Source: a virus
Lineage: Duplodnaviria; Caudoviricetes
Length of the DNA: 64,000 bases
IMG/VR virus record: IMGVR_UViG_3300031857_023573
Coordinates: 96,001 to 160,000 of that record
Strand: one strand, 5' to 3'
How positions within the stretch are numbered: the first letter of the stretch is position 1; every line of letters begins with the position of its first letter. Below the pieces are notes generated by a model, which saw only the letters and a program-made list of their open reading frames with translations, did not search any database and was not told where the DNA came from. Position numbers and translations under genes: made by a program. Positions 1,867-48,039 of the stretch are shown here, piece after piece.

Positions 1867-2197
1867 TGAGAACCTTTTTTAGCTGAAGGTCTCTTAGTTT
1901 TTGTTTTATGGCTGTATCGCTTACCCCATCTGAAATAACTTCGAGAACCTCATTACATCTATTTATTAGATTTTCAAAATTATTAAAATTCACAACTCCA
2001 GGATTTGCCGAATATTTCGAGCCTTGCCAGATAACGTCTACCTTATTAATTTTATCAGCAAGGATCCAAGTGGTAACATTATCAAACGAGAACTGGTGTC
2101 TAATTGATTCGAGTGTTTCTCTAGCCTGGTTGCGAGTCAGATCAGTAATATCAACATAGATTACGAATATAGGATTTTCTAAATTTAAACTACTCAT
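1847..2197 (-). CDS. Hypothetical protein with C-terminal LRDLQLKKVL motif
   Basis: ORF track 1847..2227; ATG 2197 preferred because it gives ATGA coupling to the infC stop. Confidence 0.7.
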   Translation of the reverse strand: MSSLNLENPIFVIYVDITDLTRNQARETLESIRHQFSFDNVTTWILADKINKVDVIWQGSKYSANPGVVNFNNFENLINRCNEVLEVISDGVSDTAIKQKLRDLQLKKVLNDDTSF

Positions 2198-2739
2198 TTC
2201 TTCTTGGGTTTTAAGACCATGTGCCATCTAGAACCCTCAAGTTTTGGCATCGTTTCTGGAACTCCAAGTGACTCTACAAGTGTTGCAAACTTCAACATAA
2301 CCAACTGACCTTTGTCTGCCATATGATGTTGACGACCTTTGAGTAGAAGTGACAATTTTACTTTATTTCCTTCTTCTAGAAACTCAGAAGCCTTTTTAGA
2401 TTTGACTTCTAAATCATGGTCTGCTATATTGACAGAAAGTGAAATTTCTTTAACTTCAGATTTTTTTTGATTTTTCTTATTCTCTTTTTCGCGTTTTTCA
2501 ACTTCATATAAAAATTTACCGTAATCTTCAATTTTAACAACTGGTGGATTGGCATTTTCCGATATTAGAATAAGGTCTTTTTCATTTGCCTCGGCAAGTT
2601 TTGAAGCTTCATATGAAGACATTATAGCTCCTTGGCCTATTTCTCCAGTCACACGAACTTGTGGAAATCTTACTTCACCATTGATTTTGTGTTTTCTCTC
2701 TTTTAATGGAGGTCTTTTTCGATTATTGTTATTGTTCAT
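2194..2739 (-). CDS. infC: Translation initiation factor IF-3
   Basis: IF3-N (KINGEVRFPQVRV...PPVVKIEDYGKFLYE) and IF3-C (VKEISLSVNIADHDLEVK...KVKLSLLLKGR...PKLEGSRWHMVLKPK). Confidence 0.93.
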   Translation of the reverse strand: MNNNNNRKRPPLKERKHKINGEVRFPQVRVTGEIGQGAIMSSYEASKLAEANEKDLILISENANPPVVKIEDYGKFLYEVEKREKENKKNQKKSEVKEISLSVNIADHDLEVKSKKASEFLEEGNKVKLSLLLKGRQHHMADKGQLVMLKFATLVESLGVPETMPKLEGSRWHMVLKPKKK

Positions 2740-2984
2740 AAGTTATTACTTCAAATGCAGAAAGTCCCTGAGCTATCTCTGGACTTAAAAATTAAGATAT
2801 TTCTTTTTATATTGACTTCGGCCATTTAAAAATGAGAATTTGGTTGATAGATAGTATCAACTGTGACCAAACTATTTAGATTTCTATTCATCTTTAAGAT
2901 ATAACGCCAATTATATTATCTAAAATTTAAATTGTTTAAAAATTTAAAAAAATATTAATGTATATATTGGGAAAAATAAAGAAG

Positions 2985-3240
2985 AAAAGAGGAACTTCTG
3001 TCAAGTACGGTCGAAATCCGAGAACCTAATTCTTGACTTTTAGTGGTCTTACCACTTGGGATTGCCTTTTAATGGTTTCATCAACCTTGGTTTAGCAGTG
3101 TTACCATTCTGCTTATTTTTCTTCCTTAACAGTAGTTTTTAAATTGTTTCGTTTAGTCTCACACTGTTATAGAGTCTAAATTTATCGGCTTTTTTATAAT
3201 TACCTATAAACGTTACCGAACCGCTTGTAGTTCACCTTTT
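2985..3240 (-). ncRNA. Candidate structured ncRNA downstream of smpB (closing stem plus two putative pseudoknots); class unresolved
   Basis: No ORF of 60 aa or more. 5' AAAAGGUGAACUACAAGCGG pairs with 3' CCGUACUUG..AGUUCCUCUUUU. Hairpin 3152-3180 has a loop complementary to 3127-3133. Hairpin 3094-3113 has a loop complementary to 3071-3076. G-U wobbles favour the minus strand. Confidence 0.45.
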
Positions 3241-3376
3241 ATTTTGTTAAATATGTTTACTATTTACCACGATGGTTCATGATTTTTCATCAAAGGCGTA
3301 AACTTATTAACTCATTACTTACCATCATATAATACAAGACTACTTCAAATAGTAAAAATTCATCTTGTAATTTTTG

Positions 3377-3808
3377 TTACAAATCATTTCTTCTTAGATC
3401 TCTATCAGTATCTCTTTTCTTAATATCTTGTCTTTTATCCCAGTCTTTTTTTCCACGACAAACTCCCATTTTTACTTTGAATCTACCATTAACAGTAAAG
3501 ACTTCAAGTGGAATTAAGGTGATACCTTTAGTCTCGGTCAATTTTGAGATTTTAGAAATTTCTTTTTTATTTAAAAGTAATTTTTTATCTCTAAGTTCAT
3601 CGTGATTTTGAAGTGATGATTCTTTATACTTTGCGATACTAAGGTTTTTAACCCAGAGTTCACCATCTTTAAAATAAATGAATGAATCTCCGAAATTAAG
3701 ACTGTTTGATCTTAAAGACTTCACTTCTGAACCAACAAGTACTAGTCCAGCTGTGAAGTCTTCGATCACTTGAAAATTAAAATATGCTTTTTTGTTTACG
3801 ATCTTCAT
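3377..3808 (-). CDS. smpB: SsrA-binding protein SmpB
   Basis: NKKAYFNF..EDFTAGLVLVGSEVKSLR...RDKKLLLNKKEI...TLIPLEV..GKKDWDKRQDIKKRD. ATG 3808 preferred over the track start 3829 (TATATTAG at 3817-3824). Confidence 0.95.
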   Translation of the reverse strand: MKIVNKKAYFNFQVIEDFTAGLVLVGSEVKSLRSNSLNFGDSFIYFKDGELWVKNLSIAKYKESSLQNHDELRDKKLLLNKKEISKISKLTETKGITLIPLEVFTVNGRFKVKMGVCRGKKDWDKRQDIKKRDTDRDLRRNDL

Positions 3809-3852
3809 AATAATTGCTAATATAAACAAAAATATCTAAATTAAAAATTATT

Positions 3853-5163
3853 TTAATATCTATATTGTTCAGATTTGAAAGGTCCTTGAGAACTAACTCC
3901 AATATATTTTGATTGTTCCTCGGTGAGAATATCTAGTTCGCATCCGATTTTCTCAAGGTGTAAAAATGCTACTTTTTCATCTAAATGTTTTGGTAGAGTA
4001 TAAACCTTATTTTCATATTTATCCGAATTAGTCCACAATTCTATTTGTGCGAGAGTTTGATTAGTGAAAGAGTTACTCATTACAAAAGATGGGTGACCAG
4101 TTGCACATCCAAGATTAACTAATCTACCTTCAGCTAGAATAATTATATCTTTGTTATCTATTGTGTACTTATCAACTTGAGGTTTGATAGTGTCTTTTGT
4201 CGATCCGTAATTTTTATTAAGCCAGTTCATGTCTATTTCGTTGTCGAAGTGACCAATATTACAAACTATAGCATTGTGCTTCATCGACTTAAAATGTCTG
4301 TCGATTATGATATTTTTATTACCAGTAGCGGTGACAATAATGTCCGCCATTTTGACAGCAGTATCCATTTTTAATACCTGATATCCATCCATTGCTGCTT
4401 GAAGTGCACAAATAGGATCAATCTCAGTGATAATTACTCTAACACCTTGTGAAGAGAGTGACTGTGCTGAACCTTTACCGACATCTCCATAACCAGCAAC
4501 AACCGCAACTTTACCAGCCATCATAATATCAGTTGCTCTTCTTATTGAATCTACTAGTGATTCTCTACAACCATACTTGTTATCAAACTTTGATTTTGTT
4601 ACAGAGTCATTGATATTTATTGCTGGTGTATAAAGAGTGCCATTTTTTACTCTCTCATGTAGTCTCAAAACACCAGTCGTAGTTTCTTCGGATAATCCTT
4701 TGATTCCATTAACAAGTTCTGGATATCTATCAAATACCATATTAGTAAGATCTCCGCCATCATCTAAAATCATATTGAGTGGTTCTCCACCTTCAAAAGC
4801 GAATAGTGTTTGTTCAATACACCAATCAAACTCTTCTTCAGACATACCTTTCCAAGCATAGACGGGAATACCAGCCTTTGCGATGGCAGCGGCAGCATGA
4901 TCCTGAGTTGAGAATATATTGCAAGAAGACCAACTTACCTCAGCTCCCAAATGTTTTAGAGTTTCTATTAGAACTGCTGTTTGAATTGTCATATGTAAAC
5001 ATCCGGCAATTCTGCTTCCTTTTAATGGTTTAGTGTCACCATATTCTTTTCTAAGAGACATTAGTCCAGGCATTTCTAGCTCAGCCAGTGCAATTTCTTT
5101 TCTTCCCCATTCTGATAAGGAAATGTCTTTTACTTTAAATTTTTGTGATAAAGTTTGATTCAT
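3853..5163 (-). CDS. ahcY: Adenosylhomocysteinase (SAH hydrolase)
   Basis: [82 protein letters not shown]. Confidence 0.97.
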
Positions 5164-5174: not shown

Positions 5175-5501
5175 TTAATTTTCAAGATTTTTGTCGATTA
5201 AATCTTTGATTTGTTGCTTACTCACCATCCCGACATGACGTTCAACGATTTTACCATCTTTGTAAAGAAGAAGTGTTGGAATATTTCTAACTCCAAGTTC
5301 TCTAACTTTATCAGTACTTTCATCTGAGTCGATTTTTCCAAATCGAACATTTGAATATTCACTTGATAACTCATCAATAATTGGTGAAATAACCTTACAG
5401 GGACCACACCACTCGGCCTTTACATCAACAAGTGCAAGACCGTCTGATGTAAATTCATCGAAGTTTTCAGTGTTTAACTTTGTTACATTAATTATAGTCA
5501 T
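5175..5501 (-). CDS. trxA: Thioredoxin
   Basis: WCGPC active site and cis-Pro motif NIPT; 108 aa. Confidence 0.92.
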
Positions 5502-5519
5502 AACTTATTTTGATTTAAT

Positions 5520-6113
5520 TTATTTATACATTTCATCAAGAATTTCAAATTCTCGACTGGTTTCACTAATTAGTATAGCTCTCCCATTTCTGATTTGACT
5601 CTTAATGGTACTAAGATTTTTTCCTAACTGGTCTGCAATATCTTTATATTGCATTTTTTGAATTTCTCTCATTTCAATTACTTGACGATAAGGTTCTTTC
5701 AAGTTTCTGATGTGACGCTTCATGATTTCAGCCTTTTTTGTGTTCAAATCATGTAGATACTCCTCTGATTCTTCTTCTTGAATGAAGTCTTTCATAGTGG
5801 TTCCTTCTTCATCAATTTCTATATCAAGAGACATAGTTTTTTTGGAATTTTTGATGTCTTGTAACATCAAGTTTCTTGCTATTGTAAATAGCCAAGTTGA
5901 AAATTGTGACTTTTCTTTTTCATACTTATCGATCTTCTCAAATGCGATAAGAAATGAATCTGTTGAAATGTCTTGAGCTTTTTGTTGATCATTACACATT
6001 CTAGATGTGTAGTAGATTAATTTTGGGTAATACTTCTCGTAGAAAAAAGAGAAGTCTTTACCTGTTCGTTCTCTAAAGAGTTGTTCTTGTTCTGGGAAAA
6101 ATGTTGAAATCAT
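5520..6113 (-). CDS. ECF-type sigma-70 family RNA polymerase sigma factor
   Basis: Region 2 (AQDISTDSF..AFEKIDKY...FSTWLFTIARN) and region 4 HTH (MQYKDIADQLGKNLSTIKSQIRNGR). Confidence 0.87.
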   Translation of the reverse strand: MISTFFPEQEQLFRERTGKDFSFFYEKYYPKLIYYTSRMCNDQQKAQDISTDSFLIAFEKIDKYEKEKSQFSTWLFTIARNLMLQDIKNSKKTMSLDIEIDEEGTTMKDFIQEEESEEYLHDLNTKKAEIMKRHIRNLKEPYRQVIEMREIQKMQYKDIADQLGKNLSTIKSQIRNGRAILISETSREFEILDEMYK

Positions 6114-6246
6114 AAATGCCGTTTAATTTATTTTTAATTCAGTAAATAACCGATAATTGCCGTCAAAATGTAGAATATTTAATTTGCGAATATAATACAT
6201 CCATGTTTATATTTTTTATATATCTAAAGTTTTTATTTCCTTTAAA

Positions 6247-8073
6247 TTATTTTAAAATTTCTTCTAAGTCTTGCACAGTAATGGTTTTAATACCAAGTTC
6301 TTGAGCCTTCTTTTCTTTAGAAGATCCAGATCCTGTAACTTTCATAACAAGATGTGTTGTGTTTTTACTAACGCTACTTCCAATTTTACCACCTCGAGAT
6401 TCAATAACTGATTCTAAATCAGGTCGTCTTACTCCAGTAAATACAAATGAAGTGCCAACTAAATCTACAGAAACTTGTTGAATAACCTTTTTTTGTTCAA
6501 TAGTAATAGGAAGATCTTTAACAAACTCAAAAAATCTGTCATATCCATCGATATAAGATTGAGCAGAAATATCAGCAAATCCTTCAATTTCTAGAACCTG
6601 ATCGATGCTAGGTTTAGTATTAAAGTGCTCAAGTAATGCTAGTTTTTTACTACCAAGTGCTCTAAAGATACCAGTAGCATGTTGGAGCTTAGAGAGACTA
6701 ACACTTGAAGTTGCCTTTTTGATAGAGTTAATTACAATTTGAGCCTTTCTTTTTCCAAAACGGTCAATTTTCTCTAAGTCTGACTCTGTAAGTTTTAGAA
6801 TATCCTCTATCGTTTTATGTCCAACATCCCAAAGTTGTTTAATAACACCTTCTCCAAAATTATCTGTCTCAAGTATTTCAAAAAATGAAACAAGTTGTTT
6901 AAATTTCTGATCGTCAGTTTCATTAAGTGTAACAAGTTCAACTCCATTCTCATTCCAATCAATATTTGGAATATCAGGCATTCTAAATTCAACTTTTTGA
7001 ATTACATCTGCAATAATCGGAATTACCATTCCAGATCGCTTTACTAAAACTTTAGCTCCGACACCGAGTCCCATATCTTTTACAAAACGAGCATTATTTC
7101 CAGTCACATTTGAAACGGTCACACCATCAAGTCGAACTGGTTTGATATGTAAAGTTGGTTTTAGATATCCTTGTTTTGAAATATTCCAAGAAATATCGAT
7201 TATCTCAGACTCAGCAGATTGTTCAAAACTTGGATGTTTGAATGCTCGAGCCCAAACAGGGTTATTAGATGATGTTTCACGGCCTAATTTATTCTGTAAA
7301 TTAAGATCATTAATTTCAATAATAAGACCATCAATTTCATATTCTAAACCAAACTTATGAAATAAACTTATGAGCAATTCTTCTGTAAGTTCGGATATCT
7401 TACAAATATGATACTGTACTTTAATTTCTTGACAGGTATTCAATGACTCGATCAAATCTTGTTTTGTCGAGAAGCAGTCTTTATTGAAAACTGCACCATA
7501 TTTAATAAAATTGCAATCTTTAAGAGACTGTTGTGTATCCTTTGAGTTCAAAAGACCAGCGACTAAGTTTCTAGGATTGGCAAATTCTTGAGAATACTTA
7601 TCAGTAAATGTCTTTTTAGACATCATGACCTCGCCATATGTGAAGTCAAATTCTTGACCATTTGAATTAAGATGGTTGCCAATCAGTTTGTAGTGTTCAT
7701 TTGATTTTTGACCAAATTGTCCATCACCACGAGTGAAAGCATCATTAGTCTTTTCATTTACACAAAGAGAAAGTCCATCAAATTTAGGAGTTATAACAAC
7801 AAATTCAGATTTTGAAATCCCTTTGAGTCGTGACCAATCTTCAATATCATCAATTGATTTTATTTTATTCATTGATGCCATTTCAATCGGTAGACGACTT
7901 TTGCGAGATTCGTCTTGAATTTCATGTCCTACTTTTGCTAGTATTTCATTTTCAGGATCAAGAGCTTTCAATTCATCTACTAAAATATCATATTGAGAAT
8001 CTGACATAATTGGTTCACCAAGACGATATTTTTGATTGGCTACTATAATTTTTTCTACTAGTTCGTTAATCAT
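6247..8073 (-). CDS. ligA: NAD-dependent DNA ligase
   Basis: Ia domain Y..GEPIMSDSQYD, KFDG motif, TRGDGQFG, ANPRNLVAG, DGLII, OB fold, HhH repeats and BRCT (FVFTG); no Cys4 zinc finger. Confidence 0.93.
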   Translation of the reverse strand: MINELVEKIIVANQKYRLGEPIMSDSQYDILVDELKALDPENEILAKVGHEIQDESRKSRLPIEMASMNKIKSIDDIEDWSRLKGISKSEFVVITPKFDGLSLCVNEKTNDAFTRGDGQFGQKSNEHYKLIGNHLNSNGQEFDFTYGEVMMSKKTFTDKYSQEFANPRNLVAGLLNSKDTQQSLKDCNFIKYGAVFNKDCFSTKQDLIESLNTCQEIKVQYHICKISELTEELLISLFHKFGLEYEIDGLIIEINDLNLQNKLGRETSSNNPVWARAFKHPSFEQSAESEIIDISWNISKQGYLKPTLHIKPVRLDGVTVSNVTGNNARFVKDMGLGVGAKVLVKRSGMVIPIIADVIQKVEFRMPDIPNIDWNENGVELVTLNETDDQKFKQLVSFFEILETDNFGEGVIKQLWDVGHKTIEDILKLTESDLEKIDRFGKRKAQIVINSIKKATSSVSLSKLQHATGIFRALGSKKLALLEHFNTKPSIDQVLEIEGFADISAQSYIDGYDRFFEFVKDLPITIEQKKVIQQVSVDLVGTSFVFTGVRRPDLESVIESRGGKIGSSVSKNTTHLVMKVTGSGSSKEKKAQELGIKTITVQDLEEILK

Positions 8074-8161: not shown

Positions 8162-11100
8162 ATGGGAATTAGGAGCTCTTTTGCTACTGTAGCTGACCAA
8201 ATAACTGCATATAATAAGAATATTGTCGATACATTAACAAAAATTAATGCGCTTACAACTACAAAAGAGCCTTCTGTTGATATTCAAATTATCGATGTTG
8301 AGGGTGTACTTAGAAGCTACAGTCTACCATCTTTTACTTTCTTAAAAACTGAAATTGAAAGACTTAATAATTCTTTGAATTCACTTTACAGTATCGATAC
8401 CGGAGGTGCACTAATTCAAACTACTACAACTAATAAGTTCAAAAAAATAATTACTGTAGACCTAAACAGAGAACCTAACCCTATTAATGATCTTGGTGCA
8501 ATTACTCAATTTAGATCTCAAAAAAACTGGTTCTTTGACTCAATGCTTAATCCAGCTCTTTTTGTTGAGTTTGATTTAAGTGGTAAAATCGAAAATAATG
8601 TAAGAAAAATTCTATCAAGAAGATATATCATTGATTTTTCTAAAGACTCCGATGGTAATTTTACAAATCTAGGTCAGTCTGCTATAAATAGCTTTAATCA
8701 GCTCTATCGTGGTAAAAGTGATATTGATATTCAAGATTTTGAAACTTGGCATAGAACAACACCTGGTGTTGTTAGTCCACTTGAACCAAATTACGATGAA
8801 CAAGTATTTGATATTGACCCTAATTCTGTTTTATTTGATGGGATGTTTAACGTATTAACAATTGAAGAGGATACCTTGAATAGAAAACTTTGGTATCATC
8901 TTAATACCCTTGACTATCTTATAAATGACACACTTGAAATTAGGCAATTATCAATTGATGATGAACTCATAATAAATCAAGAAGTATCTAATACTCGTTA
9001 CAAAGTTGTAGAAATTTCAACTACTGAATCTAATTACAGAATAAGAGTAGAAAGAATTGAAGGTCTTCAACCCATACCGGTTGGTATAGGTACTTTGAAG
9101 ATATACTCACCAGTAGTTTATTCAAAAAGAGTTAAAATTAGTGTTGGATACAATGAGAGAGATGTGATTTTTATTAAACCAATGAATGCCGATAATAATC
9201 TTATGGCAAAAGATTGGTCTAGAGGCACTGGTTTCTACACGAATGATTTAAGATTAGTTTCAAACAGTCCTGAAAATGGTTCTACTATGGAACAATTTTA
9301 CATAGACTATGTTTATGATTACGGTGAAGTTTTACAGGACTTTGTTGCTAAAAAGACACCAAATAAGTTAGCTGGTACGCCTAACATAGCTGTTCTGAAT
9401 ACAGATAATTTTAAAGTTGTTCAAATAAATAAACACCTTACTGATACGCCTGATGCTAACTTAATTAAAGTAAAACACAATTATTCGATTTCTTTAAAAA
9501 ACGAAATTAGACAACTACAAGATGCAATTGATGCGAGAAATACAAAGGCCAAAACAAATCGATTTACATCAAAGGCATCTGAAAATCAATTTAAGTTAGA
9601 AATAAAAGAGCTCGAGAACAAAAAATCTTCTAAGCAAAAGCTTTTAGCAACAACAACTCAAGAGATTATCGATCTATCGAGAACTCCAACCTCAAAGGTT
9701 GAGCCTAAATATAGACTACGTGGTTTCTGGAATATTCCAGAGGCGGTAATAACAAGAGGCACTCTACCTCAGGAAATTGTACAATTTAGAGTTCAATATA
9801 GATATATTTCTAAAGATGGTAGAGAACCAGTAGTTGAGACTTTTAATATTACTCAAAATAATCAACAGAAAACTGCAGCTTTCTCAAACTGGAATGAGTT
9901 TAAAACTGATGTTAGAAAAAGAACACTAGACAAAGCAACGGGTACTTATACTTGGCAAATTGAGGATCTAGAAAGTGCAGACACACCTAATATTAATCAA
10001 ATTGACATCGCTATAAATGTTAACGAAAAGGTTGAGATGAGAGTAAAATCTATTTCAGAAGTTGGTTGGCCAGAGTCTCCAGTTGAATCTGAATGGAGTG
10101 ATATTCTTACAGTTCAGTTTCCAGATGACTTAAATAATGTCTTAAATGATAATGATTTCATATTAAAAGAGGCCTCTAAAGAAGAACTTAAAGTTAGCAT
10201 GCAAACCGAACTTACAGCTAGAGGATTGGATGAACACTTATCTGAGACAGCGGTAATAAACAATAAGACTTTCCATCATACTGCTGAAAAAATTGTTTCT
10301 GGATTTAAAGATGAAAATGGTGTCAATCTAGACCTATTTGAGTATCTAAGTAAACTAGAAAATAGAGTAAGAGCACTCGAAGAAAGAATCAAGAGAGCTA
10401 AAGGTGAACTCGAAGTTGTTATTATTAGAAGTAATCAAGAATTCGTCGTATCTAATAACTCAGAGACAGCTTTCAATGTTGAACTTGAAGAATATCTTGA
10501 AGCATACACAGCGGCCGGCGCACCAACAGGTAGAATATATGAAAACAATGTTTATGTCATAAAAGACTTTGCAATCGTTCTAAGAAACGTAGCTGTTGAT
10601 TCAGCTCTTGGACTTTTATCGAATAGAGATTATGCAGGTTCGAGTATTTATAATACTGCTGCTCCTCAGGTATTCTGGGTTAATAGCCAAGATGAACTTC
10701 TTTTCAGTGACGTGACAGGAACAAGTAAAACTCAACTACCAAATCAGTACATTTGGGCTTTAAATTATGACTCTATTACACAAACTAGTTTGGTAAAATT
10801 AAGTGAGAATATTGGTAACTCATTTACCACATTGAATAATAATTCATTGACTAATGTGCTTAGTCTTACAGAATACAATATAGGATATTCAGATAACTCT
10901 TCATTATCTTTCTTATCTAGCAACAATTCGTTGCTTGATACTTCAAAGTGGGTAGATACTGTTGAAACAGTTGCATCTACTGAGAAACTACTATCAAGTA
11001 TACATCCAGCTATTCCAGATTTGCAAAATCTTGTTGAGTCAAATGAAGATAAAGTTAAGAGTATAGCTGGTGGTCAAGAAGTTATAATACCACTTCACAT

Positions 11101-11326: not shown

Positions 11327-11329
11327 TAA

Positions 11330-21547: not shown

Positions 21548-22096
21548 ATGAGTCATTTAAAAAGATTTTATGAATTTATAAATAATTCTGATTCAGATGA
21601 TATATTAGATATTTTACAAGATTTTGCAGAAACTAAACCAAATATTTGGAAGCATCAATTTGTAGAATATACTAATGACTTGCTAGTTGTTTATTTTGAT
21701 AATGTAGATAAAATGAACCGAATCAATTTTGATGAGATTGGGCAAAGACTAGAATCATTTGAATATAAATTAGTATCTTTTTTTGAACAGTCAAATGATT
21801 CAGTTTGGTTTTTGATTATGAGTGATGATCTATATTCTAAATATAGGCAAATGAATTTTAAATTCATCGAGGATTTTTTTAACGATAACAGAGAATTTGG
21901 ACATGAATTGATAGAATACACTACCGGTGACTGTATCGAAATAACTTCAACTGGTGATGAGGTAAACATCTGGTCAATTAGTGATGGTTATGTTGAAAAA
22001 GATTCAGAAAATAGAGTTTGTGCAAATATTTATTTACTCGAAGCACAGCATAGGATTTCTGGTATTATTAAATCTTTATCAGTTAGAGGATTTTAA
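21548..22096 (+). CDS. Hypothetical acidic protein, possible internal head protein
   Basis: N-terminus MSHLKRFYEFINN; AATATATA 4 nt before ATG. Confidence 0.6.
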   Translation: MSHLKRFYEFINNSDSDDILDILQDFAETKPNIWKHQFVEYTNDLLVVYFDNVDKMNRINFDEIGQRLESFEYKLVSFFEQSNDSVWFLIMSDDLYSKYRQMNFKFIEDFFNDNREFGHELIEYTTGDCIEITSTGDEVNIWSISDGYVEKDSENRVCANIYLLEAQHRISGIIKSLSVRGF

Positions 22097-22106
22097 TATA
22101 TAAATT

Positions 22107-36000: not shown

Positions 36001-39000
36001 GGGTTAACACATATGGATTTCCTTTTGTGCGTGCAAATCCAATAACTCACTTAAATCTTGGTGATACATATAGAGTCACTGTAAATATTGGGTCACTTAC
36101 TGTTGCTCAGGCAATAGACAGAGAAAATGTTGGAATTCAGATAAGTCTTGGAAGACCGGGTTCTGCTGGTGCGTATGGTGAAACATCAGGTACTTATGAA
36201 GGTTCACTATACCCTCTTTTTAAAGATATAGTTTCTGCAGAGGATTTTGTGAGTCCACACAGAAGAATTATAGATTTAGAAGGTCACACTGGTGCACTAG
36301 TTGATAGTGCTGTTATACCAGGAATTGATGGCTGGATTGGTAGTGGTGGGCAAATGACTGAAACTCTTATAGCAAGAGATAATGCGACTCTCTACTTACA
36401 CTTCAATCTATATGGAGTATCACAACTTACAATTGATAGTATTGTTGTAGAAAGAGTAATTTGTACAACTGCTGCTGAAATAAACGAGGGATATACTTCA
36501 GATATTATCACAAATATTGCGAAATACAGACAATCAATTGGTGATACATCTTATCAAGAAATATTTATAAATAATGCATTTACTTTTAGTATAGATGCTA
36601 GCTATCCAGATATTACTGGATCACCTGATGTTGATTCAACTACATTTACACAATCAAGCACTGTAGCAGAAACTTGGGAGTTTTTGAATAATTATACATA
36701 TTATCCAGTTCGACAAAGCTACGCAGTATCTTCGGGTGGTGCAAAAGGTGGTGGTGTATCATATATTCAAGTCAACAATGCATCAAGTGTTCAAACAGAT
36801 GGTCCAATTTGGCGATCTTTTTCACCAGCTACCAATTGGCTATATGTTGTTGATGAAAATTCAAGTATAGATATTTTTACAGCATCTGGTGAGTATGAAA
36901 TCACTTTTAGATATAGTTTTGGATGGTCAGATCCCAATGAGACACCAACTCAAACAAGTTATGGTGTGAAATTTAGAGTAGAAATAGGATATATTGAAGT
37001 TGGTGGTGTTCCTTTTGATAATGGTGGTATAAGAGAGCAATTTGATTCAGATGTTATTCCACTACCTGTAGCATCAGTCAGTGGTCCAAACATTTTGGGA
37101 TTTTTCACTGTTAATCCGACTGCTCAATATTATGCAGATGGTATGATAAGAACTTACACTACAATATTCAATCCCTCTGTGATAACAGAGACTTCTGACT
37201 CTACAAAATGGATGAGATTTAAAAAAATGAATATTGGAGGCATTGGTAGTCGAGTTGATGTAAGAATACATGGAATAACAATTACTAAAAAATCAACGCA
37301 GTATGACAATCAGTTTAATAATGCGACATATTCTTTATTAGCTGTTGATCCATCTTATGATGACGTATTAACATTGCCAAATTACTCTAAAACTGGTGTA
37401 GCTACCAATGGATATGTTGTATCAACAAGATTTGGAAACGGACTGTTCGTATCAGGAACTGGTTCTGCTCCGTCCTCTATTTGGGAGAATGGGGTGTGGA
37501 ATGATGGTTTAAGATATGACAAAAATGTTGTTGTGTTTACAGATTTGAGTAAATTATCCGGCAGTGATAAATCTGATGCAAGACAAGCAGAGTTTGAAAT
37601 TAAAGGAACTAGAGTTGGTACTATTCCGAATACTCGAGATGATAATTTCTCAAGAGTGAAATATTCTACAAAAAATTGGTTAATAACACTTGATGCTGCT
37701 GAGGGATATATTCAATTTGAAAACTCGTTAATTGACCAAAGTGGTCTAAATATAAATTATTACTTTAATGTTGGTGATAAAGTAAGTGTTGGTAATATTA
37801 TCTCAGTAGATATAAATGGAAAAAGAAAACTAATCAGAGATTATTTTACAGTTGTCGCGATAACAAGAACAACAAAAACTGATACAATTAACCCAGTTTG
37901 GCAACTTATACTTAGTATTTCAATAAACTTTCCTATAAGGACAATAGAAAGGGATTCTGTAAATCATCCAATCTATGTTTCAAAAAATATTTGGCTGAAT
38001 GGGGCTTACTTAAACGGAACATTTAGAGGTATATGGACAAACGGACTTTTCAAAGGTAGACCTTACCTAACAAAAATGATTGATAGTCAATGGATAGATG
38101 GTCGATTTGATGGTGGTCACTTTAGAGGAAAAACAGCATCTATTATCGATAATATACTATCAGATACGCCTGAAGTTGAAGTATTCCCGTCTGGACTAAT
38201 ACAGAATTTTATATTTAAAGATAATAATATATCAGGTCGACCTTTTGGATTTCTTTATAACTCTTGGTTAGAACTAAATTATATCACGACACAAGCCGTT
38301 AATCTCGGGAAAAATGAACTGATTTCGAATGTTTCAACTAGAGTAGATAGAATAAATTACGGTATCCGAGTGCCAAAATCAAATACTTGGTCTATAAATA
38401 ATTACTACGGATATCCGACAAAAGATATCTTATCTAGTATTTCATATTTCAGAAACGGTGACGATCTAAATATACAGGCCTATAGTCTAGGTTGGAAATT
38501 TAAAAGATATGAACAATTTATACCAGATAATGGTGAGTTTTTGAATCCATTCGACAATTATGAAGAAACGAGAACCGTTACCTCTGAAGGTATTGCTGTA
38601 CAGGAGCAGGGTGTCTCCGAATATCCGGGTATGAAAAACTTTTTTGATCAAGGATGGACTTTTTCTACTAGATTAAATCAGCTCGGGTGGCGTACCGAAA
38701 TACCCGGTGGTGATTCTAGGACACTTTATAGATTTTCTTCTAATACAGAACAACCCTATCCAATAAATGAAAGTGGAGGGTATTACGGAGTTCCGGACGA
38801 ATCAGGCTATAACTTATCAAAAATGGTAGTGCAATTAAATAATCCAATTTTAGCTTTTGATGGATACGCCGATGATATCGAGTCTGAAGTGGGTCAAATA
38901 AGGCTTGATAATACTTACACAAAACTGCCAAGGAATAAGTATACAATTTTAGAATTCAAACTAGACTTCAAAGGAGCTACATTCTCTAATGATTTATTTT

Positions 39001-39734: not shown

Positions 39735-40462
39735 TCCTTTTTAAGCTTTAGAATTAAATCTCCGACTTTGCCCGGCTCATTTTTAGAAAAATGACCCATG
39801 TGTTTTATAATAGTCTCGTCTTTCTCTTTTTCCAATTTAATTTTAGTAAGTTTTTGCTTGCCTAAAATTCTTTTATCTCCTTTACAGGTTTGACAGTCTT
39901 TGCTTCCTAATTTTCCTTGACCGAAACAGAAAGAACATTTATTACCAAATGGATCTTTTCCAGATCCTTCGCAAAAATCACATCCATCATCAGAATCGAA
40001 GATCCCCTTAACATTGCCTTCATCATCTTTAATAACAAATTTGCTTTTTAAGTCTTTTCCTGTGCCATTACAAGTTTTACAAATGACCCATCTTTGATAT
40101 TCTATTGTTCCAGAGAAATTATTATCAACTATCTCAACTATGTTCAAAACTTGATTCTTTTTGAAATCTTCGTATTTTTTATTCTCCTTATCAAAATCAA
40201 AATCAACTGAAACTACATAAAGTTCTTCTAGTTCATTGTAGTCTTTTCCCCATTTACTCTTTCTATCATATTCAATCCTAAGTTCACTATTTGATAAGAC
40301 ACTATAAGCTTCAGAAATAGAGTTAAAAAGTTCAGTATCAACACCAGAATTTTTATCCGGATGATATTCAAAAGATAGTTTGTAGTAGGCCTTTTTTATT
40401 TCTACATCAGTGCTTTGATGTTTGACTCCTAAAACTTTATAATAATTAGTTTGTAAATTCAT
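39731..40462 (-). CDS. dnaJ: DnaJ-family co-chaperone (J domain plus four CxxCxGxG-like motifs, shortened C-terminus)
   Basis: NYYKVLGV..YHPDKN; CKTCNGTG, CDFCEGSG, CSFCFGQG, CQTCKGDK. Confidence 0.88.
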   Translation of the reverse strand: MNLQTNYYKVLGVKHQSTDVEIKKAYYKLSFEYHPDKNSGVDTELFNSISEAYSVLSNSELRIEYDRKSKWGKDYNELEELYVVSVDFDFDKENKKYEDFKKNQVLNIVEIVDNNFSGTIEYQRWVICKTCNGTGKDLKSKFVIKDDEGNVKGIFDSDDGCDFCEGSGKDPFGNKCSFCFGQGKLGSKDCQTCKGDKRILGKQKLTKIKLEKEKDETIIKHMGHFSKNEPGKVGDLILKLKKD

Positions 40463-40858: not shown

Positions 40859-41056
40859 TTAAAACTCCTCTTCTTGTCTTTTCTTTTTTTCTAAATAAAT
40901 TGCCTTTTTAACTTCGTCTCTTCTTTGTACAGATTTTTTTGTATAACTCTGTCTGTTTCTAAGTTCCCTAAGAACTTTAGTGCTATCAAATTTTCTTTTG
41001 AATTTTTTTAAAGCTCTTTCAATAGTATCTTTACCAGTAACTTCAATTATTATCAT
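40859..41056 (-). CDS. rpsU: Ribosomal protein bS21 (Bacteroidota type)
   Basis: MIIIEV..DTIERALKKFKRKFDSTKVLRELRNRQSYTKKSVQRR...KAIY; 65 aa. Confidence 0.92.
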   Translation of the reverse strand: MIIIEVTGKDTIERALKKFKRKFDSTKVLRELRNRQSYTKKSVQRRDEVKKAIYLEKKKRQEEEF

Positions 41057-41325
41057 AAGATTGTTTTTAATTTTATATCTCTAATTAGTTGATTTCTTTC
41101 TGCTTCTGACATTTTTTTAAAGTCTTCAAATTTTATATCAAATCCTAGTGCAGCCAGTACAATCTCAAAAAAACTAGTAAGATCCTTATCGATAGATATA
41201 TTAGTGTCCCAAGTTCCTCCTCCACTTGAGTACACCAAATGACTCCCAGACGTGAGCGTTGTTCCACTTATAACCCCGGTGTTTATTGAACTAGCAATAT
41301 TTATATTATTATAGGTATTTGACAT
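41053..41325 (-). CDS. Hypothetical protein ending in IRDIKLKTIL
   Basis: ORF track; AATATATA at 41334-41341; ATGA coupling to rpsU. Confidence 0.7.
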   Translation of the reverse strand: MSNTYNNINIASSINTGVISGTTLTSGSHLVYSSGGGTWDTNISIDKDLTSFFEIVLAALGFDIKFEDFKKMSEAERNQLIRDIKLKTIL

Positions 41326-41347
41326 AAGTATTTTATATATTATATTT

Positions 41348-41617
41348 TCACTTAAAGTTCAAAACTTGCTCAAGTTTTAAATTTCTCAAGTTTTCCTTGA
41401 TATTTATAACAAATAGATTCATAGAATCAACTTTGGATACGCCACGATATGTCATTTTAATTATTTTACTATCAAAACTTTTTATAATCGGGTAGGTATC
41501 TTCAGGTAGTTGTTCAACTGTCCATATTGGCAACATTTTATCAATATCAAATCTGATATTATAGTCTGTGTATTCTACAAACCTACCATCTATACTATAT
41601 TTTACAAGCACCTCCAT
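41348..41617 (-). CDS. Hypothetical protein with C-terminal LRNLKLEQVL motif
   Basis: ATG 41617 (MEVLVKY), just after the gp46-like stop, preferred over track start 41647. Confidence 0.65.
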   Translation of the reverse strand: MEVLVKYSIDGRFVEYTDYNIRFDIDKMLPIWTVEQLPEDTYPIIKSFDSKIIKMTYRGVSKVDSMNLFVINIKENLRNLKLEQVLNFK

Positions 41618-41618
41618 T

Positions 41619-43322
41619 TTATTGCTCTTCGATATGCAATTCTTCAATAGTTGAAAATACTTCTTTGTTAACTCTAATTATTCTATCGAACATCTCTTGA
41701 TTCAATACAGCGTGATGTACTACAAAGATATTAACGTTATATTGATTTGAGAATGATTTCAAAAGACCAAGTATTTTTTGAATATTTTCTAAGTCAACAC
41801 TTGAAAATACTTCATCTAAAAACAAGATGTTAATATGTTTTTTTGTTCTAATAAGCATTAAGTAAGCAGTTAAAATACAAATATTGGTGAGTTTCTGCTC
41901 ACCTGTACTTAGACTCTCAGAGTCAATTACAGAACCAAGATGTTTGATTTCAGCATTAAAAGTCTCATCAAGTGAAACTTCAAAATGCATACCCATTTTC
42001 TTAATATTTTCATTAATGAAGAAGTTAATAGGCTTAATTATTCCTGCAATAATTGATTTTTTGACACCATCTTCACCAAATATTCTGTTTAGTTCTTTAT
42101 AATAAAGCTCTTTATCTTTACAAAGAGATGAATTATTCGAAGATACTTTTTTCTTTTCACTAAGTTCGTTTATCGCATTTTCAAATTCTTGAACATTCTC
42201 TGATGCCTTACCGTCTTCTCTTAATTGTTTGTTTTGTAATTTTTCAATCTGTAACTTACAATTTTTCAAATAATAAGTCATATCATTAAATGCTTTAAGA
42301 GCATTGTCTGATATTGGTTGTAATTTGAGTTGTTTTTCTTTTATAGATTTTATATTTGATTCGAGTTCTACTTTGATATTTTCTAAAGACTGTTTTTTCT
42401 CTAAAAGAGTTCCCCTAAGTGCGATAAAATGTTCAGAGTCAAAATCTGTTTTACACATTGGGCACTTTCCAGAATCAAAAAGATCAATTTCTTTTTGGAT
42501 TGATTTAATATCAGTCTGTAAAATAATATACTGACTTTTCTCTTGATCTATTTCTTCTTTTAATTCTATATCTTTAGATTTTATTTTTTCAATTTTTTCT
42601 TTAAGTAGTTTATATTCTTCTTTTTTGGACTCCATATCCGATTTGATCTTGTCAATCTCTACTTGAGTATTCTCTTTTTCCTTCTCAATTGCTTTAGTTA
42701 TTGAATTCTGAATTGATTGAATAGACTCATTAAGTGTGGATATCTCTGAATCTAGAGATGCCATTCTAATTTTATTATTCTTATTTAACTCTTTTAATAT
42801 AGAATTTAAAATATTGATTACTTCTAAATTGAATAGTTTATCTAAAAGAAGTTGTTTTTCTTCATTTGACAATGAGATAAAGTTCTTGAACGAGTCAACA
42901 CTCATAGACATGAAAGACTTGAATGTTTCAATATCCATTCCAATATAGTCTTCTATCTTTTCATCAATATTAGATTTTCCAGCTCTTTCATTTAATACAC
43001 CGTTCTCCCAGATTTCTAGAACATTTGGAGAGATTCCTCTTTTAACTTCAATATTAGTTCCTTTAGATTTAAATTTTATGTCTATCAACATCTCACCACC
43101 ATTAATCCTGTTTGGTAAAGTTGAAAGAGTTGCCCACTTTTTTTTTGATCCTGAACATTTACCATACAAAGAGAAGTCAACTGATCTTAGTAATGTTGAC
43201 TTTCCAGCACCATTTTGACCGACTAATAATACTAAATCCCCTTTTTCAGTATTAAGCTTTATAGATTGTCTAGAGTTTCCAAAAGATTTGAAGTTCCTTA
43301 TTCCAATTTCTTCTATTAACAT
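41619..43322 (-). CDS. SbcC/Rad50/T4 gp46-like recombination endonuclease ATPase subunit
   Basis: Walker A GQNGAGKST, coiled coils with CPMC zinc hook, signature LSTGE, Walker B FLDEVFSSVD, H-loop VVHH. Confidence 0.92.
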   Translation of the reverse strand: MLIEEIGIRNFKSFGNSRQSIKLNTEKGDLVLLVGQNGAGKSTLLRSVDFSLYGKCSGSKKKWATLSTLPNRINGGEMLIDIKFKSKGTNIEVKRGISPNVLEIWENGVLNERAGKSNIDEKIEDYIGMDIETFKSFMSMSVDSFKNFISLSNEEKQLLLDKLFNLEVINILNSILKELNKNNKIRMASLDSEISTLNESIQSIQNSITKAIEKEKENTQVEIDKIKSDMESKKEEYKLLKEKIEKIKSKDIELKEEIDQEKSQYIILQTDIKSIQKEIDLFDSGKCPMCKTDFDSEHFIALRGTLLEKKQSLENIKVELESNIKSIKEKQLKLQPISDNALKAFNDMTYYLKNCKLQIEKLQNKQLREDGKASENVQEFENAINELSEKKKVSSNNSSLCKDKELYYKELNRIFGEDGVKKSIIAGIIKPINFFINENIKKMGMHFEVSLDETFNAEIKHLGSVIDSESLSTGEQKLTNICILTAYLMLIRTKKHINILFLDEVFSSVDLENIQKILGLLKSFSNQYNVNIFVVHHAVLNQEMFDRIIRVNKEVFSTIEELHIEEQ

Positions 43323-43529: not shown

Positions 43530-43777
43530 TCAACCATGTTTTCAAAAGGTTCACACTGTTCTATTATAGACTTCATAAGTGGTAGATAATCTGAGTGTTC
43601 TTCTATATATGACCCAAGAGCTTTTATTAGACTGTCATCAACGGTCAATAACATTTTATCAGCAGTATAGTAGAAAATCGAGTCATGATATGTGTCTCTA
43701 TACATCAAACCAATAGATACTAAAATCCCACCTTCGAACTTTCCAATATAATCAATTATTGATCCGGTTATTTCCAT
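43496..43777 (-). CDS. Hypothetical protein (93 aa)
   Basis: ORF track. Confidence 0.65.
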   Translation of the reverse strand: MEITGSIIDYIGKFEGGILVSIGLMYRDTYHDSIFYYTADKMLLTVDDSLIKALGSYIEEHSDYLPLMKSIIEQCEPFENMVDQLQDIETSEE

Positions 43778-43982
43778 CTAAAATAAGACCTAATTTTTCA
43801 TCTCGGATATTTTTTAAATATCCATTATTGTTTAATGTGTTGAATAAAGATGTAGATATACCTTTTCTGCCCTCTTCATGTGTGTAAATCATATCTCGAT
43901 AATAATCATGTATTTTATTCGCAGTTTCTTTATCTAAAGAGTTTATCTTTTCTAAATCTAAGTAGTATTGTGTTAAATCCAT
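43752..43982 (-). CDS. Hypothetical protein with C-terminal IRDEKLGLIL motif
   Basis: ORF track. Confidence 0.65.
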   Translation of the reverse strand: MDLTQYYLDLEKINSLDKETANKIHDYYRDMIYTHEEGRKGISTSLFNTLNNNGYLKNIRDEKLGLILDGNNRINN

Positions 43983-44300: not shown

Positions 44301-46556
44301 TTACTGATATGGAAAAAACGGAAGTGTAATTTTAGTATTTGCGTTATCAGCAAACACCAAATACTTAGAATCATCAGCAATAATATATTGATTAAGGATC
44401 TTATTATGTTCTGATACAGGTATTACTTCAGAGAACAATCTGATATTAGTCATCTTCATATCTGAAGCAAATATTTGAGTATCGATTCCTACCAACTCAA
44501 AATCAACTGGTACAAAAGTTTGACTATCATAATAAACCTTTTCTAACACGGTTGAAGAAAGGAATTTAGCCTCTTCTTCTGCATCAATCTCTACATTACG
44601 CTTATAAATCCACTGATTTAACTTTCTATTTCTTTGATCCACATTCAATACATAGCAATACCAAACATTTTCATATAAGTCAGATGTTGAATAAGTTGAC
44701 CCAGTAAAACTAAACGTATAAGTATCCGAATTAATGTTTAAAGAAATATTATCATTTTTCAAGTTAACTTGCCAACCCAAATTATTCACTGTATCATAAT
44801 TTGTAAGGAAATTATAACTTTCATCTGTCACATAATTATTCAAATTGAACCACATATAAAATCCAATATTGTCCGATACCTTTATTCTTGAATCAACTGA
44901 TTTATAAGTGATCGCAGTTATAGACTGTGTTGCCAATTGGAATCCATTATAGAGTAGATTAGAAAAATCATAATGTTGCTTAGACACAATTGTAGTCGAG
45001 TTTTCAATTAATTCTTTCACAATTTCAGCCTTATACTGAAGTCTAATTGGATCTCTAGTAAGTGGTTGAAGTTGTGGTTTGTTTGCAATCGAGTCTTTAT
45101 CTTGTCTGTTTTCAACTCCGAATAACTCATCAATAGTCGTATTCTTCGTGAGTTCCTTTATCCTATCATTAATTTCATTAGTTGCTGCGATAACATTTGC
45201 AGATTTGTTGTATTTCTTCAATACAACTTTATAATAAATTGCGGCATTATTGAAATTTCTGAACTGTTGAGCATGATCAACAATAAACATTCTATTGATG
45301 TCACAGAAGTAAATTAGGTCTTCTTTTGATGGTCTTCTTTGAACACCAAAAGCTGCCTTAAATGATTCTTTGGTAATATGTATTTCAAAAGAGTCAAAAA
45401 GAGTTAGGTCAAACTGGTTCATTACAATTTGATTATCCGGAAACTGGTTATTTTCAACTGCAACCTTGATTTCCTCTTCACAGACAATATTAAATAGTTG
45501 AAATTCATGAAGAGTATAATCTATACCTTTACCATCTGGATCTGTTACAAAGTATTTAACTCTCCACCCAAATATTTCAATCGAATCATTACTTAGTCTA
45601 TTAAGTAGATTCATAGCTTGTGTTTGTTGGTAAGGATTATATAGCTTAGACTTTTCATCTGCAGTCATTGGTTTTAAAATATTACCAGTTGTACAAGATT
45701 GAGCATCTAACACACCGGTAGTGTTTGCAATCAAGTTACCATTTTCGTCTAAAACTCCATTTGATGTTCCAAGTAAATAAGATTGGCAGCAATCTCTTAT
45801 ACCATAAAGATTAGTCTTTGAATAATCTTGTGTAACATTTTGAAAGTCTCCTATTAAGTTAATATCTTGAATTTTAACACTTGAAGCAGAATTATTTACT
45901 ATTAGATATTCAATTTGAAAAAATCTAATTGGATTAATTCTTTTAGTCGAAATGTTTTCTTTTGTGAATGGTTCCCATTCGGTCCAATTTCTTGAATTAT
46001 CTTGTGAAAATCTGTATAAAAAGTCAACTCCAGATAAATTGTTTGGTGATATTATTTCTATATCAGTTATTGAAAATACTTTGTATATAAATGGTGGTTT
46101 TATTATTCCTTGCTTACCACTTCCAATAATTACATTCTCATTTGATGTGTCTTGTAGAAGTTTACCATTTAGTTCGAATGAAGTAAGTCTTATCTCTCCG
46201 TCTGTTTTTGTACCACTTCTTATAAACTTTATATCGATCCACATTTTATCAAGTGGATCAAAAGGTGGGAAATTTGTTATTTGCTCTTTAAGTTCTAACC
46301 AACTAGTCCAGGTATTCCCATTTCTAGAAATTCTATACTGTGTTTCAAGATATCTTGACTCTAAAACACCAGTTGCTACATAAGAGAAGTTAGTAAACTC
46401 TTCAACCTTTTCTAATTGTATAAAAGAAATAACATACTCATCACCTACTTCATAAAAGTATGGAGTTGCATCACTAGCCGTTGAACCTGCTAAAGTATTA
46501 TAGGACTGAGAAATAATAATACTTCCAGTAGTAAAATCATTTGTAACTTGTGACAT
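44301..46556 (-). CDS. Neck/head-closure protein with T4 gp14-like core and N- and C-terminal extensions
   Basis: Core DSIEIFGWRVKYF...FEIHITKESF...RRPSKEDLIYF..NRMFIV...YYKVVLKKY; C-terminal LamG-like WYCYVLNV..MTNIRLF. Confidence 0.6.
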   Translation of the reverse strand: MSQVTNDFTTGSIIISQSYNTLAGSTASDATPYFYEVGDEYVISFIQLEKVEEFTNFSYVATGVLESRYLETQYRISRNGNTWTSWLELKEQITNFPPFDPLDKMWIDIKFIRSGTKTDGEIRLTSFELNGKLLQDTSNENVIIGSGKQGIIKPPFIYKVFSITDIEIISPNNLSGVDFLYRFSQDNSRNWTEWEPFTKENISTKRINPIRFFQIEYLIVNNSASSVKIQDINLIGDFQNVTQDYSKTNLYGIRDCCQSYLLGTSNGVLDENGNLIANTTGVLDAQSCTTGNILKPMTADEKSKLYNPYQQTQAMNLLNRLSNDSIEIFGWRVKYFVTDPDGKGIDYTLHEFQLFNIVCEEEIKVAVENNQFPDNQIVMNQFDLTLFDSFEIHITKESFKAAFGVQRRPSKEDLIYFCDINRMFIVDHAQQFRNFNNAAIYYKVVLKKYNKSANVIAATNEINDRIKELTKNTTIDELFGVENRQDKDSIANKPQLQPLTRDPIRLQYKAEIVKELIENSTTIVSKQHYDFSNLLYNGFQLATQSITAITYKSVDSRIKVSDNIGFYMWFNLNNYVTDESYNFLTNYDTVNNLGWQVNLKNDNISLNINSDTYTFSFTGSTYSTSDLYENVWYCYVLNVDQRNRKLNQWIYKRNVEIDAEEEAKFLSSTVLEKVYYDSQTFVPVDFELVGIDTQIFASDMKMTNIRLFSEVIPVSEHNKILNQYIIADDSKYLVFADNANTKITLPFFPYQ

Positions 46557-46623
46557 GATGTATATATTAAAACTGATATATTTATAAGATATAAATAAAT
46601 TTTTGAAAATTTGTTAATAAAAA

Positions 46624-46654
46624 TTTGTTAAAAAGTTAAAATTCCTTATATTTG
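46624..46654 (+). promoter_or_regulatory. Bacteroidota-type promoter (-33 TTTG, -7 TATATTTG)
   Basis: TTTG 46624-46627, 19-nt spacer, TATATTTG 46647-46654. Confidence 0.65.
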
Positions 46655-46687
46655 TATTGTATTATTACCTAATATAGTTATTCTATT

Positions 46688-47893
46688 ATGAATATTAAAG
46701 AAACATTTTTACAACTAACCACACGAACTTATCCACATGGATATGAACACCAGCTTTTTGATAAGCTCCCACAAAACCTTGAAATGGATGAATTTGGAAA
46801 CCTTTTTATAAAAATTGGTGACAGTGATGTAATGTTCACTTCACACCTTGATACCGCGACTTCAGCGCTTACTACAGTTAATCACGTCTTTGAAGGAGAC
46901 ATAATCAAAACTGATGGTAAATCTATACTCGGCGCAGATGATAAAGCAGGTGTTACAATTATGCTCTATATGATCGAAAACAAGATACCCGGTCTTTACT
47001 ATTTCTTCTTAGGTGAAGAAGTTGGATGTCTTGGTTCTAAGAAAGTTGCTGAAAAACATCGTCAAGAAAAACTTGACTATATCAAAAAGGTTATTTCTTT
47101 TGATCGTAGGGGTACAGATTCAGTAATAACATTTCAATCAAGTTCAAGATGTTGTTCTGAAAAATTCGCAACAGAACTCTCTACTCAGCTTAACTTGGTC
47201 AATGATGGTTTTAAATACAAGAATGATCCAACTGGTATCTACACAGATTCTGCACAATTTGTATCAATATATCCTGAATGTACCAATATTTCAGTGGGTT
47301 ACTACTCAGAGCACACACACAGTGAGCGTCAAGATATTGCTCACTTAGAGAAACTTGCAAAAGCATGTTTAAAAGTTGATTGGTCTAGTCTACCTGTAGA
47401 AAGAGATCCCGGAAAAGTTGAATACTCTTCAAGTAGTTATTCTGGTTATGGATACGGATGGGGATCTTGGGAAGACTATTCTTCTGGATATCGATATGAA
47501 GAAAAGACATATACGTCAACTAAAAAAGATGATCAAAAAGTTACTTTCTATGATGAAGAATATAGATATGTAAGTGATATTACAATTAATACATCAACTG
47601 GTGATATCAAAGATGTAAATCTTGCACCGGAAAGAGTTCAAGAAGAAAGAAGACTCATTTCTAATTTCTTGGAAGATCTAGAACTTGAGTATACTAGTTT
47701 TATTTGGAATGGTCTTAAGCTCTCAGTTTATTATAAAGACGGAAGAGTAACTGATGCAAGTAGACTTGAATTGGAAGAGTATATCAGTGAACTTGATGTC
47801 ACTAAATTAATTGATAGTTGTGATGAAAAAGAGTATCAGAACAATCTGAGACTTTCTGACAGAGATTGGTCTGATCTTGAATATTGGTATTAA
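46688..47893 (+). CDS. M28/M20-family zinc peptidase-like protein
   Basis: FTSHLDT, LGADDKAG, GEEVG, SFDRR, YTDS, GYYSEHT. Confidence 0.8.
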   Translation: MNIKETFLQLTTRTYPHGYEHQLFDKLPQNLEMDEFGNLFIKIGDSDVMFTSHLDTATSALTTVNHVFEGDIIKTDGKSILGADDKAGVTIMLYMIENKIPGLYYFFLGEEVGCLGSKKVAEKHRQEKLDYIKKVISFDRRGTDSVITFQSSSRCCSEKFATELSTQLNLVNDGFKYKNDPTGIYTDSAQFVSIYPECTNISVGYYSEHTHSERQDIAHLEKLAKACLKVDWSSLPVERDPGKVEYSSSSYSGYGYGWGSWEDYSSGYRYEEKTYTSTKKDDQKVTFYDEEYRYVSDITINTSTGDIKDVNLAPERVQEERRLISNFLEDLELEYTSFIWNGLKLSVYYKDGRVTDASRLELEEYISELDVTKLIDSCDEKEYQNNLRLSDRDWSDLEYWY

Positions 47894-47965
47894 AATAATT
47901 TAAAAAATTATTCCTAAAATAAAAACTTTTTTATATATTAGCGATACTATAGAGACACAATTTTT

Positions 47966-48039
47966 GGACGAGTAATTCAGTTGGTTAGAATGCGACACTC
48001 ATAATGTTGAAGTCGGGGGTTCGAATCCCTCCTTGTCCA
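47966..48039 (+). tRNA. tRNA with CAT anticodon (elongator Met or Ile2); CCA not encoded
   Basis: Acceptor GGACGAG/CTTGTCC, D arm ATTC/GAAT, anticodon arm CGACA-CTCATAA-TGTTG, T arm GGGGG-TTCGAAT-CCCTC, discriminator A then CT; TATATTAG at 47934-47941 upstream. Confidence 0.93.

Follow-up and report, generated by a model that had tools for sequence, protein, structure and literature searches.

We describe here a structured RNA encoded on the minus strand at positions 2977–3369 of a 64,000 nt stretch of viral DNA (positions 96,001–160,000 of IMG/VR record IMGVR_UViG_3300031857_023573), the whole of which is referred to below as the window. The RNA lies between smpB and infC, the gene for translation initiation factor IF3. 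Its fold, which contains three pseudoknots, is shown here to be conserved, and the sequence changes among its relatives make it very probable that it is transcribed and functional. In related huge phages it is followed by yqeY, and the function that we rank first, as a possibility, is that it binds YqeY and acts in trans in translation or tRNA handling. A preliminary description of the window had singled out infC, smpB, an rpsA-like gene, rpsU and a tRNA-CAT as a dispersed kit for taking over host translation. All five genes are present, the S1-like one in a form that is only bS1-like, and they are an old core block with an accessory IF3 gene.

A conserved RNA fold with three pseudoknots

In every close relative of the window smpB is followed by a gap free of open reading frames, whose DNA sequence is conserved. 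The pattern scans yielded 34 different sequences of the RNA, and further copies are present in LR745206 and, in shortened form, in LR756502; L026, L053 and L303 were rejected as chance pattern matches. In group A of these copies smpB directly adjoins the RNA, and in group B it lies 2.2–3.9 kb upstream. The parts of the RNA in the window are the following.

2977–3369 (−): the whole RNA, non-coding, structured and conserved, with a length of about 390 nt between inferred ends; no Rfam family
3333–3369 (−): 5′ hairpin P0; the sequence varies and the pairing is kept (by eye)
3271–3326 (−): helix P1, whose AGUA/GAA internal loop resembles a loop E judging by sequence only, and, further in, helix P2
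3233–3298 (−): pseudoknot 1 (3298–3292 with 3239–3233); two-sided changes in 5/8 pairs in group B
3127–3180 (−): hairpin P5 and pseudoknot 2 (3169–3163 with 3133–3127)
2977–3128 (−): 3′ domain, the most conserved part, with closing helix P8 (3128–3117 with 2988–2977)

For group B, 56 named pairs from ten helices, three of them pseudoknots, were followed through the alignment, and 97.6% of the cells were paired; for group A, where the alignment is poorer in the variable middle, the figure was 88.8%. As the helices had been picked by eye from the same sequences, these percentages are inflated, and it is the two-sided changes that are the actual evidence for the fold: 17 pairs were changed on both sides in group B, which none of 500 shuffles matched, with slid controls at 32–43%. 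The hairpins of the 3′ domain are independently recovered by RNAalifold. This domain contains a GUAA-tetraloop hairpin, pseudoknot 3 (3063–3059 with 3019–3015) and near-invariant unpaired motifs, and P8, a long-range helix of 8–12 bp, was found in all 29 copies tested. A fourth pseudoknot drawn from the GUAA hairpin was dropped, as it is broken in L025 and L054. The natural short form (L069:5960–6172, from LR756502) keeps the 3′ domain, apparently lacks P1 and pseudoknot 1, and still precedes yqeY.

The single-sequence folding z-score of the window copy is only −2.1, which might suggest a DNA element or a decayed gene, and not an RNA, as the reason why the gap is conserved. However, the compensatory changes, which include G-U wobbles, and the three pseudoknots all fall on one strand, no reading frame is conserved and a promoter motif lies upstream (see below), and we regard this explanation as very improbable.

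All-Rfam scans of three copies gave no match at E-values up to 10, and the GOLLD model was likewise without a match. A model built from the 3′ domain detected the control LR756502 and gave no match in two Lak phages, in LR756501 or in LR756504; it also gave none in a sample of 151 Bacteroidota genomes, searched with strict filters and no positive control. When GTDB genomes were scanned with a degenerate pattern, the matches listed were chance ones only. No paper on the RNA was found in the literature, the supplements of large RNA-motif surveys lying outside this search.

The link to yqeY and the possible roles of the RNA

Outside the window, yqeY was found downstream of the RNA in 44 of the 44 loci with room for it, at a distance of at most 57 nt in 41 of them and of 150–190 nt in three records. 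The promoter motif TAnnTTTG stands just upstream of the RNA in 31 of 48 loci; it is not found in the lineage of the window, in which the RNA directly adjoins the stop codon of smpB. In this lineage yqeY has been lost from the locus, infC has been brought next to the RNA, and a spacer separates the two.

2740–2965 (−): spacer where yqeY and one or more neighbours have been lost; one part can be aligned with the intergenic sequence that precedes infC in the relative L019

In group A, yqeY is followed by an ATP-grasp-like gene of the R2K family (L013:11401–12252, L019:11389–12252), which was lost together with yqeY in the window's lineage.

It has been reported that YqeY is homologous to the tail of GatB, which has been implicated in binding the tRNA D-loop (PMC2811023), and that OLE RNA binds bS21 and, preliminarily, YqeY (PMC12054373). 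Because yqeY is the constant neighbour of the RNA, and in view of the GatB-tail homology and the link between OLE and YqeY, we favour a model in which the RNA would be co-transcribed with yqeY, would bind YqeY, a protein with the tRNA-binding fold of the GatB tail, and would form with it a small ribonucleoprotein that acts in trans in tRNA handling or translation. This is the leading candidate among the roles considered, all of which are inferred, and still falls short of an even chance. A wider proposal, that the RNA and phage YqeY, perhaps together with bS21 or SmpB, form a ribonucleoprotein of a new class, by which ribosome rescue or translation in the host would be reprogrammed, is more speculative again.

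Such a particle would be somewhat like the OLE particle, though the RNA itself is not OLE. Both are large ornate RNAs with a link to YqeY (preliminary for OLE) and, in the case of OLE (RF01071), to bS21 (PMC12054373), and a few short motifs look alike by eye; the phage RNA is, however, about half the size, shows no homology and has no mimic of the anti-Shine–Dalgarno (anti-SD) sequence, and OLE occurs in Bacillota. Identity with OLE was rejected after the Rfam RF01071 model, profile searches in both directions, a permuted OLE and a model of our own had all been negative.

The same arrangement would also fit a cis-regulatory leader of yqeY (an attenuator or autoregulatory site), which in the window's lineage would now control infC: the RNA stands between the promoter motif and yqeY, closely so in 41 of the 44 loci, and P8 is followed by a U-rich run. 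However, most leaders need less than 300–400 nt with three pseudoknots, there is no classical terminator hairpin, the spacing stretches in three records, and the fold was kept after yqeY had left the locus. We consider a leader unlikely, though it comes next in order after the binding of YqeY.

In group B genomes the unit of RNA and yqeY lies 1–7 kb ahead of large tRNA arrays, and GOLLD is located near tRNA clusters. The RNA might on these grounds be a stand-alone RNA of the GOLLD/ROOL kind heading a tRNA array, its link to yqeY being positional. It shares with these RNAs its size, its pseudoknots and its association with phages, and differs from them in being shorter, in lacking a model match and in its fixed link to yqeY (PMC12286853). 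In the window, L013–L015 and L019 there is no tRNA gene within about 10 kb after the RNA, and the all-Rfam scans showed no similarity to ROOL or any other family; the ROOL model RF03087 itself gave no match in five genomes, though its positive control was also silent. A resemblance to ROOL seen by eye was not borne out in these searches. This role is improbable in our judgement.

SmpB without a recognisable tmRNA

3377–3808 (−): smpB, 143 aa; TIGR00086 score 172 against a cut-off of 119; core gene

The true start of smpB is the ATG at 3808, giving a protein of 143 aa as in its homologs. The OB core scores above the equivalog cut-off, and the tail keeps the GKK and DKR motifs and has a length like that of Bacteroidota SmpB tails; the idea that the tail is crippled was dropped, as Bacteroidota tails are equally short and variable. 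In the tree, the SmpBs of the phages group in a single clade, with the Bacteroidota sampled as its sister group (support 97/83). A search of IMG/VR with an SmpB seed gave no match.

The preliminary description had spoken of a rescue set; this set is incomplete. No transfer-messenger RNA (tmRNA) was found in the window by ARAGORN or Rfam, none scored over the cut-off in ten related records, and ARAGORN found none in the whole of LR745206; the search applied to the related records did detect the tmRNAs of two Lak phages and LR756504, which served as positive controls. Relaxed ARAGORN calls in LR745206 were rejected because they fell in coding DNA or tRNAs, and the best sub-threshold hits inspected in the relatives are tRNAs or tRNA-like. 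As this phage clade has no recognisable tmRNA, its SmpB would, somewhat more probably than not, partner the tmRNA of the host.

Two sub-threshold matches are recorded here in their own right. A conserved tRNA-like RNA of about 130 nt, which has an acceptor stem, a T arm, a D-like arm and G3-C70 (not alanine identity) but lacks an anticodon arm, sits within a tRNA array in L060:1500–1630, L305:1500–1630 and L307 (genomes G001, G018 and G017); it is the top sub-threshold tmRNA match in these three records and does not occur in the window. In the SmpB-bearing 735-kb phage LR756501, a 344-nt match of 21 bits (718388–718731) is possibly a divergent tmRNA.

The structured RNA itself might be the partner of SmpB, either as a replacement for tmRNA or as a decoy that alters ribosome rescue. 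It directly follows smpB in group A and is within a few kilobases of it in group B, smpB is a core gene in phages where tmRNA is undetected, and the RNA resembles tmRNA (RF00023, including the Lak-phage tmRNAs) in its length and its several pseudoknots. It lacks, however, a tRNA-like domain, with neither a G3-U70 acceptor stem nor a T-arm nor a CCA end, and the 3′ word that looks tRNA-like in some copies lies inside P8 and varies. The candidate tag frame GELQAVR is confined to the window's lineage, with no tag or other reading frame conserved, and the RNA has no likeness, sense or antisense, to five host tmRNAs. The reading as a tmRNA was rejected on these grounds (no tag frame, no CCA end, no likeness to host tmRNA). 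Since the constant neighbour is moreover yqeY and not smpB, a partnership with SmpB is the least probable of the four roles, after YqeY binding, a leader and a GOLLD-like RNA in that order.

Upstream of smpB, the gene for S-adenosylhomocysteine hydrolase (ahcY; 3853–5163, −) is missing in the strain variant L011 and from this spot in the relatives, and is thus a recent, variable acquisition. The run beyond it (5175–8073, −), encoding a thioredoxin, an ECF-type sigma factor and an NAD-dependent DNA ligase, is conserved upstream of smpB clade-wide.

Translation genes, phage clade and host

2194–2739 (−): infC, translation initiation factor IF3, 181 aa; IF3_N and IF3_C domains; start codon ATG, shortly preceded by two in-frame stops
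17153–18268 (+): four-domain bS1-like protein, 371 aa; N-terminal helices and four OB domains; core gene
40859–41056 (−): rpsU, Bacteroidota-type bS21; TIGR00030 score 40.3 against 28.95; Tyr54; core gene
47966–48040 (+): tRNA-CAT, elongator type (Met or Ile2) by sequence features

Among ten related records that bear the RNA, smpB and yqeY occur in all ten, the S1-like gene in nine and bS21 in eight, the records without S1-like or bS21 being fragments, and the distance between smpB and bS21 is 36–44 kb throughout. IF3 is found in one of six near-complete relatives; it is not at the syntenic spot in L017 and has a different context in other phages. This distribution of core genes, the constant spacing and the patchy, relocated IF3 identify the translation genes as an old core block to which IF3 is an accessory. 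The proposal that they are a co-selected initiation-plus-rescue kit peculiar to this genome can draw on the fact that all five lie within 46 kb and have Bacteroidota-type features. Yet the IF3 gene comes and goes, at different places, the tRNA is an elongator, the remaining genes belong to the clade core, and the combination has been published; we consider such a kit improbable. The available passages of a survey of huge phages (Al-Shayeb et al. 2020, PMC7162821) already describe IF3, S1-domain proteins, bS21, SmpB and tmRNA, with low use of Shine–Dalgarno (SD) sequences in S1 carriers, and SmpB, IF3 and bS21 co-occur in LR756501, a published 735-kb genome. The window is related to two of the huge phages on record, LR745206 and LR756502. 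The same passages contain no mention of SmpB without tmRNA, of lost autoregulatory signals or of a structured RNA.

The usual operon partners are indeed missing, as had been noted: rpmI/rplT do not follow infC, and the kinase gene near the S1-like gene encodes CoaE rather than Cmk. In host loci rpmI is mostly downstream of infC, in phage loci never. The infC product scores 163.8 bits against a TIGR00168 cut-off of 60, and the phage IF3s form one clade, its placement being weak. Host infC is autoregulated via a near-cognate start codon, AUU in E. coli and ATA in F. johnsoniae (PMC7797042). In a sample of 18 Bacteroidota-group genomes, 12 had solely ATA, ATT or ATC, four had ATG (three Chitinophagaceae and Arcicella) and two had TTG. 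The non-canonical codon, typical of infC although not universal, was found in none of 19 phage loci, 15 of which start with ATG, the window copy included, and four with TTG. With its canonical start, the phage gene would be free of the feedback of its hosts.

A similar argument applies to rpsU, which is autoregulated through a strong SD in many hosts (PMC9976891): no SD was seen when the upstream sequences in the window and eight relatives were read, and the phage gene would thus escape this feedback too. Its product is closest to Bacteroidota structures of the F. johnsoniae type and keeps Tyr54 in an ungapped alignment with F. johnsoniae; it is this residue of bS21 that stacks on the anti-SD (PMC7797042). 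Phages of freshwater Bacteroidetes with the same type of bS21 and an aromatic residue 54 have been described (Chen et al. 2022, PMC9723584); those have genomes of 293–331 kb with bS21 within the terminase/capsid block, whereas the genomes of the present clade are larger and carry bS21 between SbcC-like and DnaJ-like genes.

The product of 17153–18268 is bS1-like and not a standard bS1, since it scores 83 bits against an rpsA equivalog cut-off of 577. Foldseek with its predicted model gave bS1 as the top match (E 1.3e-21), and the protein aligns to residues 65–344 of E. coli bS1, corresponding to domains 1–4 preceded by the N-terminal helix as in bS1. A complex prediction of its N-terminal half with F. 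johnsoniae uS2 scored 0.36 against 0.50 for an unrelated control and was used neither way. The tRNA-CAT had been counted as part of the kit. In an initiator tRNA-fMet, positions 1 and 72 do not pair and the anticodon stem contains three G-C pairs. The window's tRNA has G1-C72 and an anticodon stem of C-G, G-U, A-U, C-G and A-U, and is thus not an initiator.

Taken together, bS21 and the four-domain bS1-like protein would be likely to supplement or replace their host counterparts on the 30S subunit and hold it in an SD-independent mode, which would suit the A-rich, SD-less genes of the phage. The levels of rpsU and infC would be set by phage transcription alone, outside host feedback loops, with IF3 as an accessory and the tRNA-CAT unconnected to initiation.

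The viral origin of the window is supported by LR745206, a published huge phage of 634,780 bp, in which 37 of the 64 window proteins have homologs, mostly collinear (window 3377–44260 corresponds to the 333–292 kb region). A Gp23-type capsid gene was found there and in four relatives (436–642 kb), and the check for rRNA found none within the 64-kb window, whose GC content is 26–36%. Of the structural genes mentioned earlier, the large candidates have either no match at all or matches confined to PHROGs whose function is unknown. The host is probably a member of the Bacteroidota, judging by the bS21 type, the scarcity of SD-like motifs (upstream of 5/64 genes), the enrichment of TAnnTTTG (9/64 genes against 2.4 in shuffles) and the SmpB tree, and the Bacteroidota-type, SD-poor setting noted before thus stands. 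The best explanation as a whole, which we hold with slightly more confidence than doubt, is a clade of freshwater jumbo phages of about 430–640 kb, of which the window is a piece of the vertically inherited core block.

Several points weigh against this picture and the roles proposed within it. At this locus the lineage of the window has retained the RNA although yqeY is no longer next to it, and adjacency elsewhere may reflect synteny alone. An anti-SD-like word, the mimic that in OLE is the bS21 site, occurs in only 2/25 of the 3′ domains. The S1-like protein is far below the rpsA cut-off and falls short of the full-length, six-domain Gram-negative form; Chitinophagaceae and Arcicella also start infC with ATG, which the phage may have inherited from a donor rather than by selection; and the host assignment is itself inferred from sequence features.

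Other genes in the window were noted in passing. Very large conserved proteins of 1054, 1559, 3228 and 751 aa (8162–16707, +; 30048–39734, +; 44301–46556, −) are either without a named family or similar only to PHROGs whose function is unknown, and are probably virion parts. Two proteins at 21548–23072 (+) share a basic-aromatic N-terminal peptide, and small proteins at 41053–41647, 43752–43982 and 52956–53312 end in a similar R-D/N-x-K-L-x-x-I/V-L helix. Sequence inspection points to ClpB/C-like ATPase, NAD synthetase-like and DnaJ-like genes (53330–56220, +; 39731–40462, −) and to a cluster of sugar-nucleotide, methyltransferase and glycosyltransferase genes (56332–63874, −), mostly missing from LR745206. 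A ClpP gene lies about 1 kb past the window's left edge, in L007.

While the set of translation proteins is ordinary for huge phages and of a known kind, phage copies of rpsU and infC without the signals that limit their levels in hosts offer a concrete route to an altered ribosome composition. The clade also has SmpB without a recognisable tmRNA, and in addition an RNA that belongs to no catalogued family, shows strong covariation and is firmly linked to yqeY, which bears on the function of stand-alone YqeY and on the biochemical roles of large ornate RNAs such as OLE, GOLLD and ROOL. An RNA of 300–400 nt with a natural short form of about 300 nt or less (LR756502) and a candidate partner of 135 aa is a tractable system for in vitro work. 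If the proposed model is true, the particle of RNA and YqeY would be a compact viral analogue of OLE and would provide a defined RNA partner for stand-alone YqeY.

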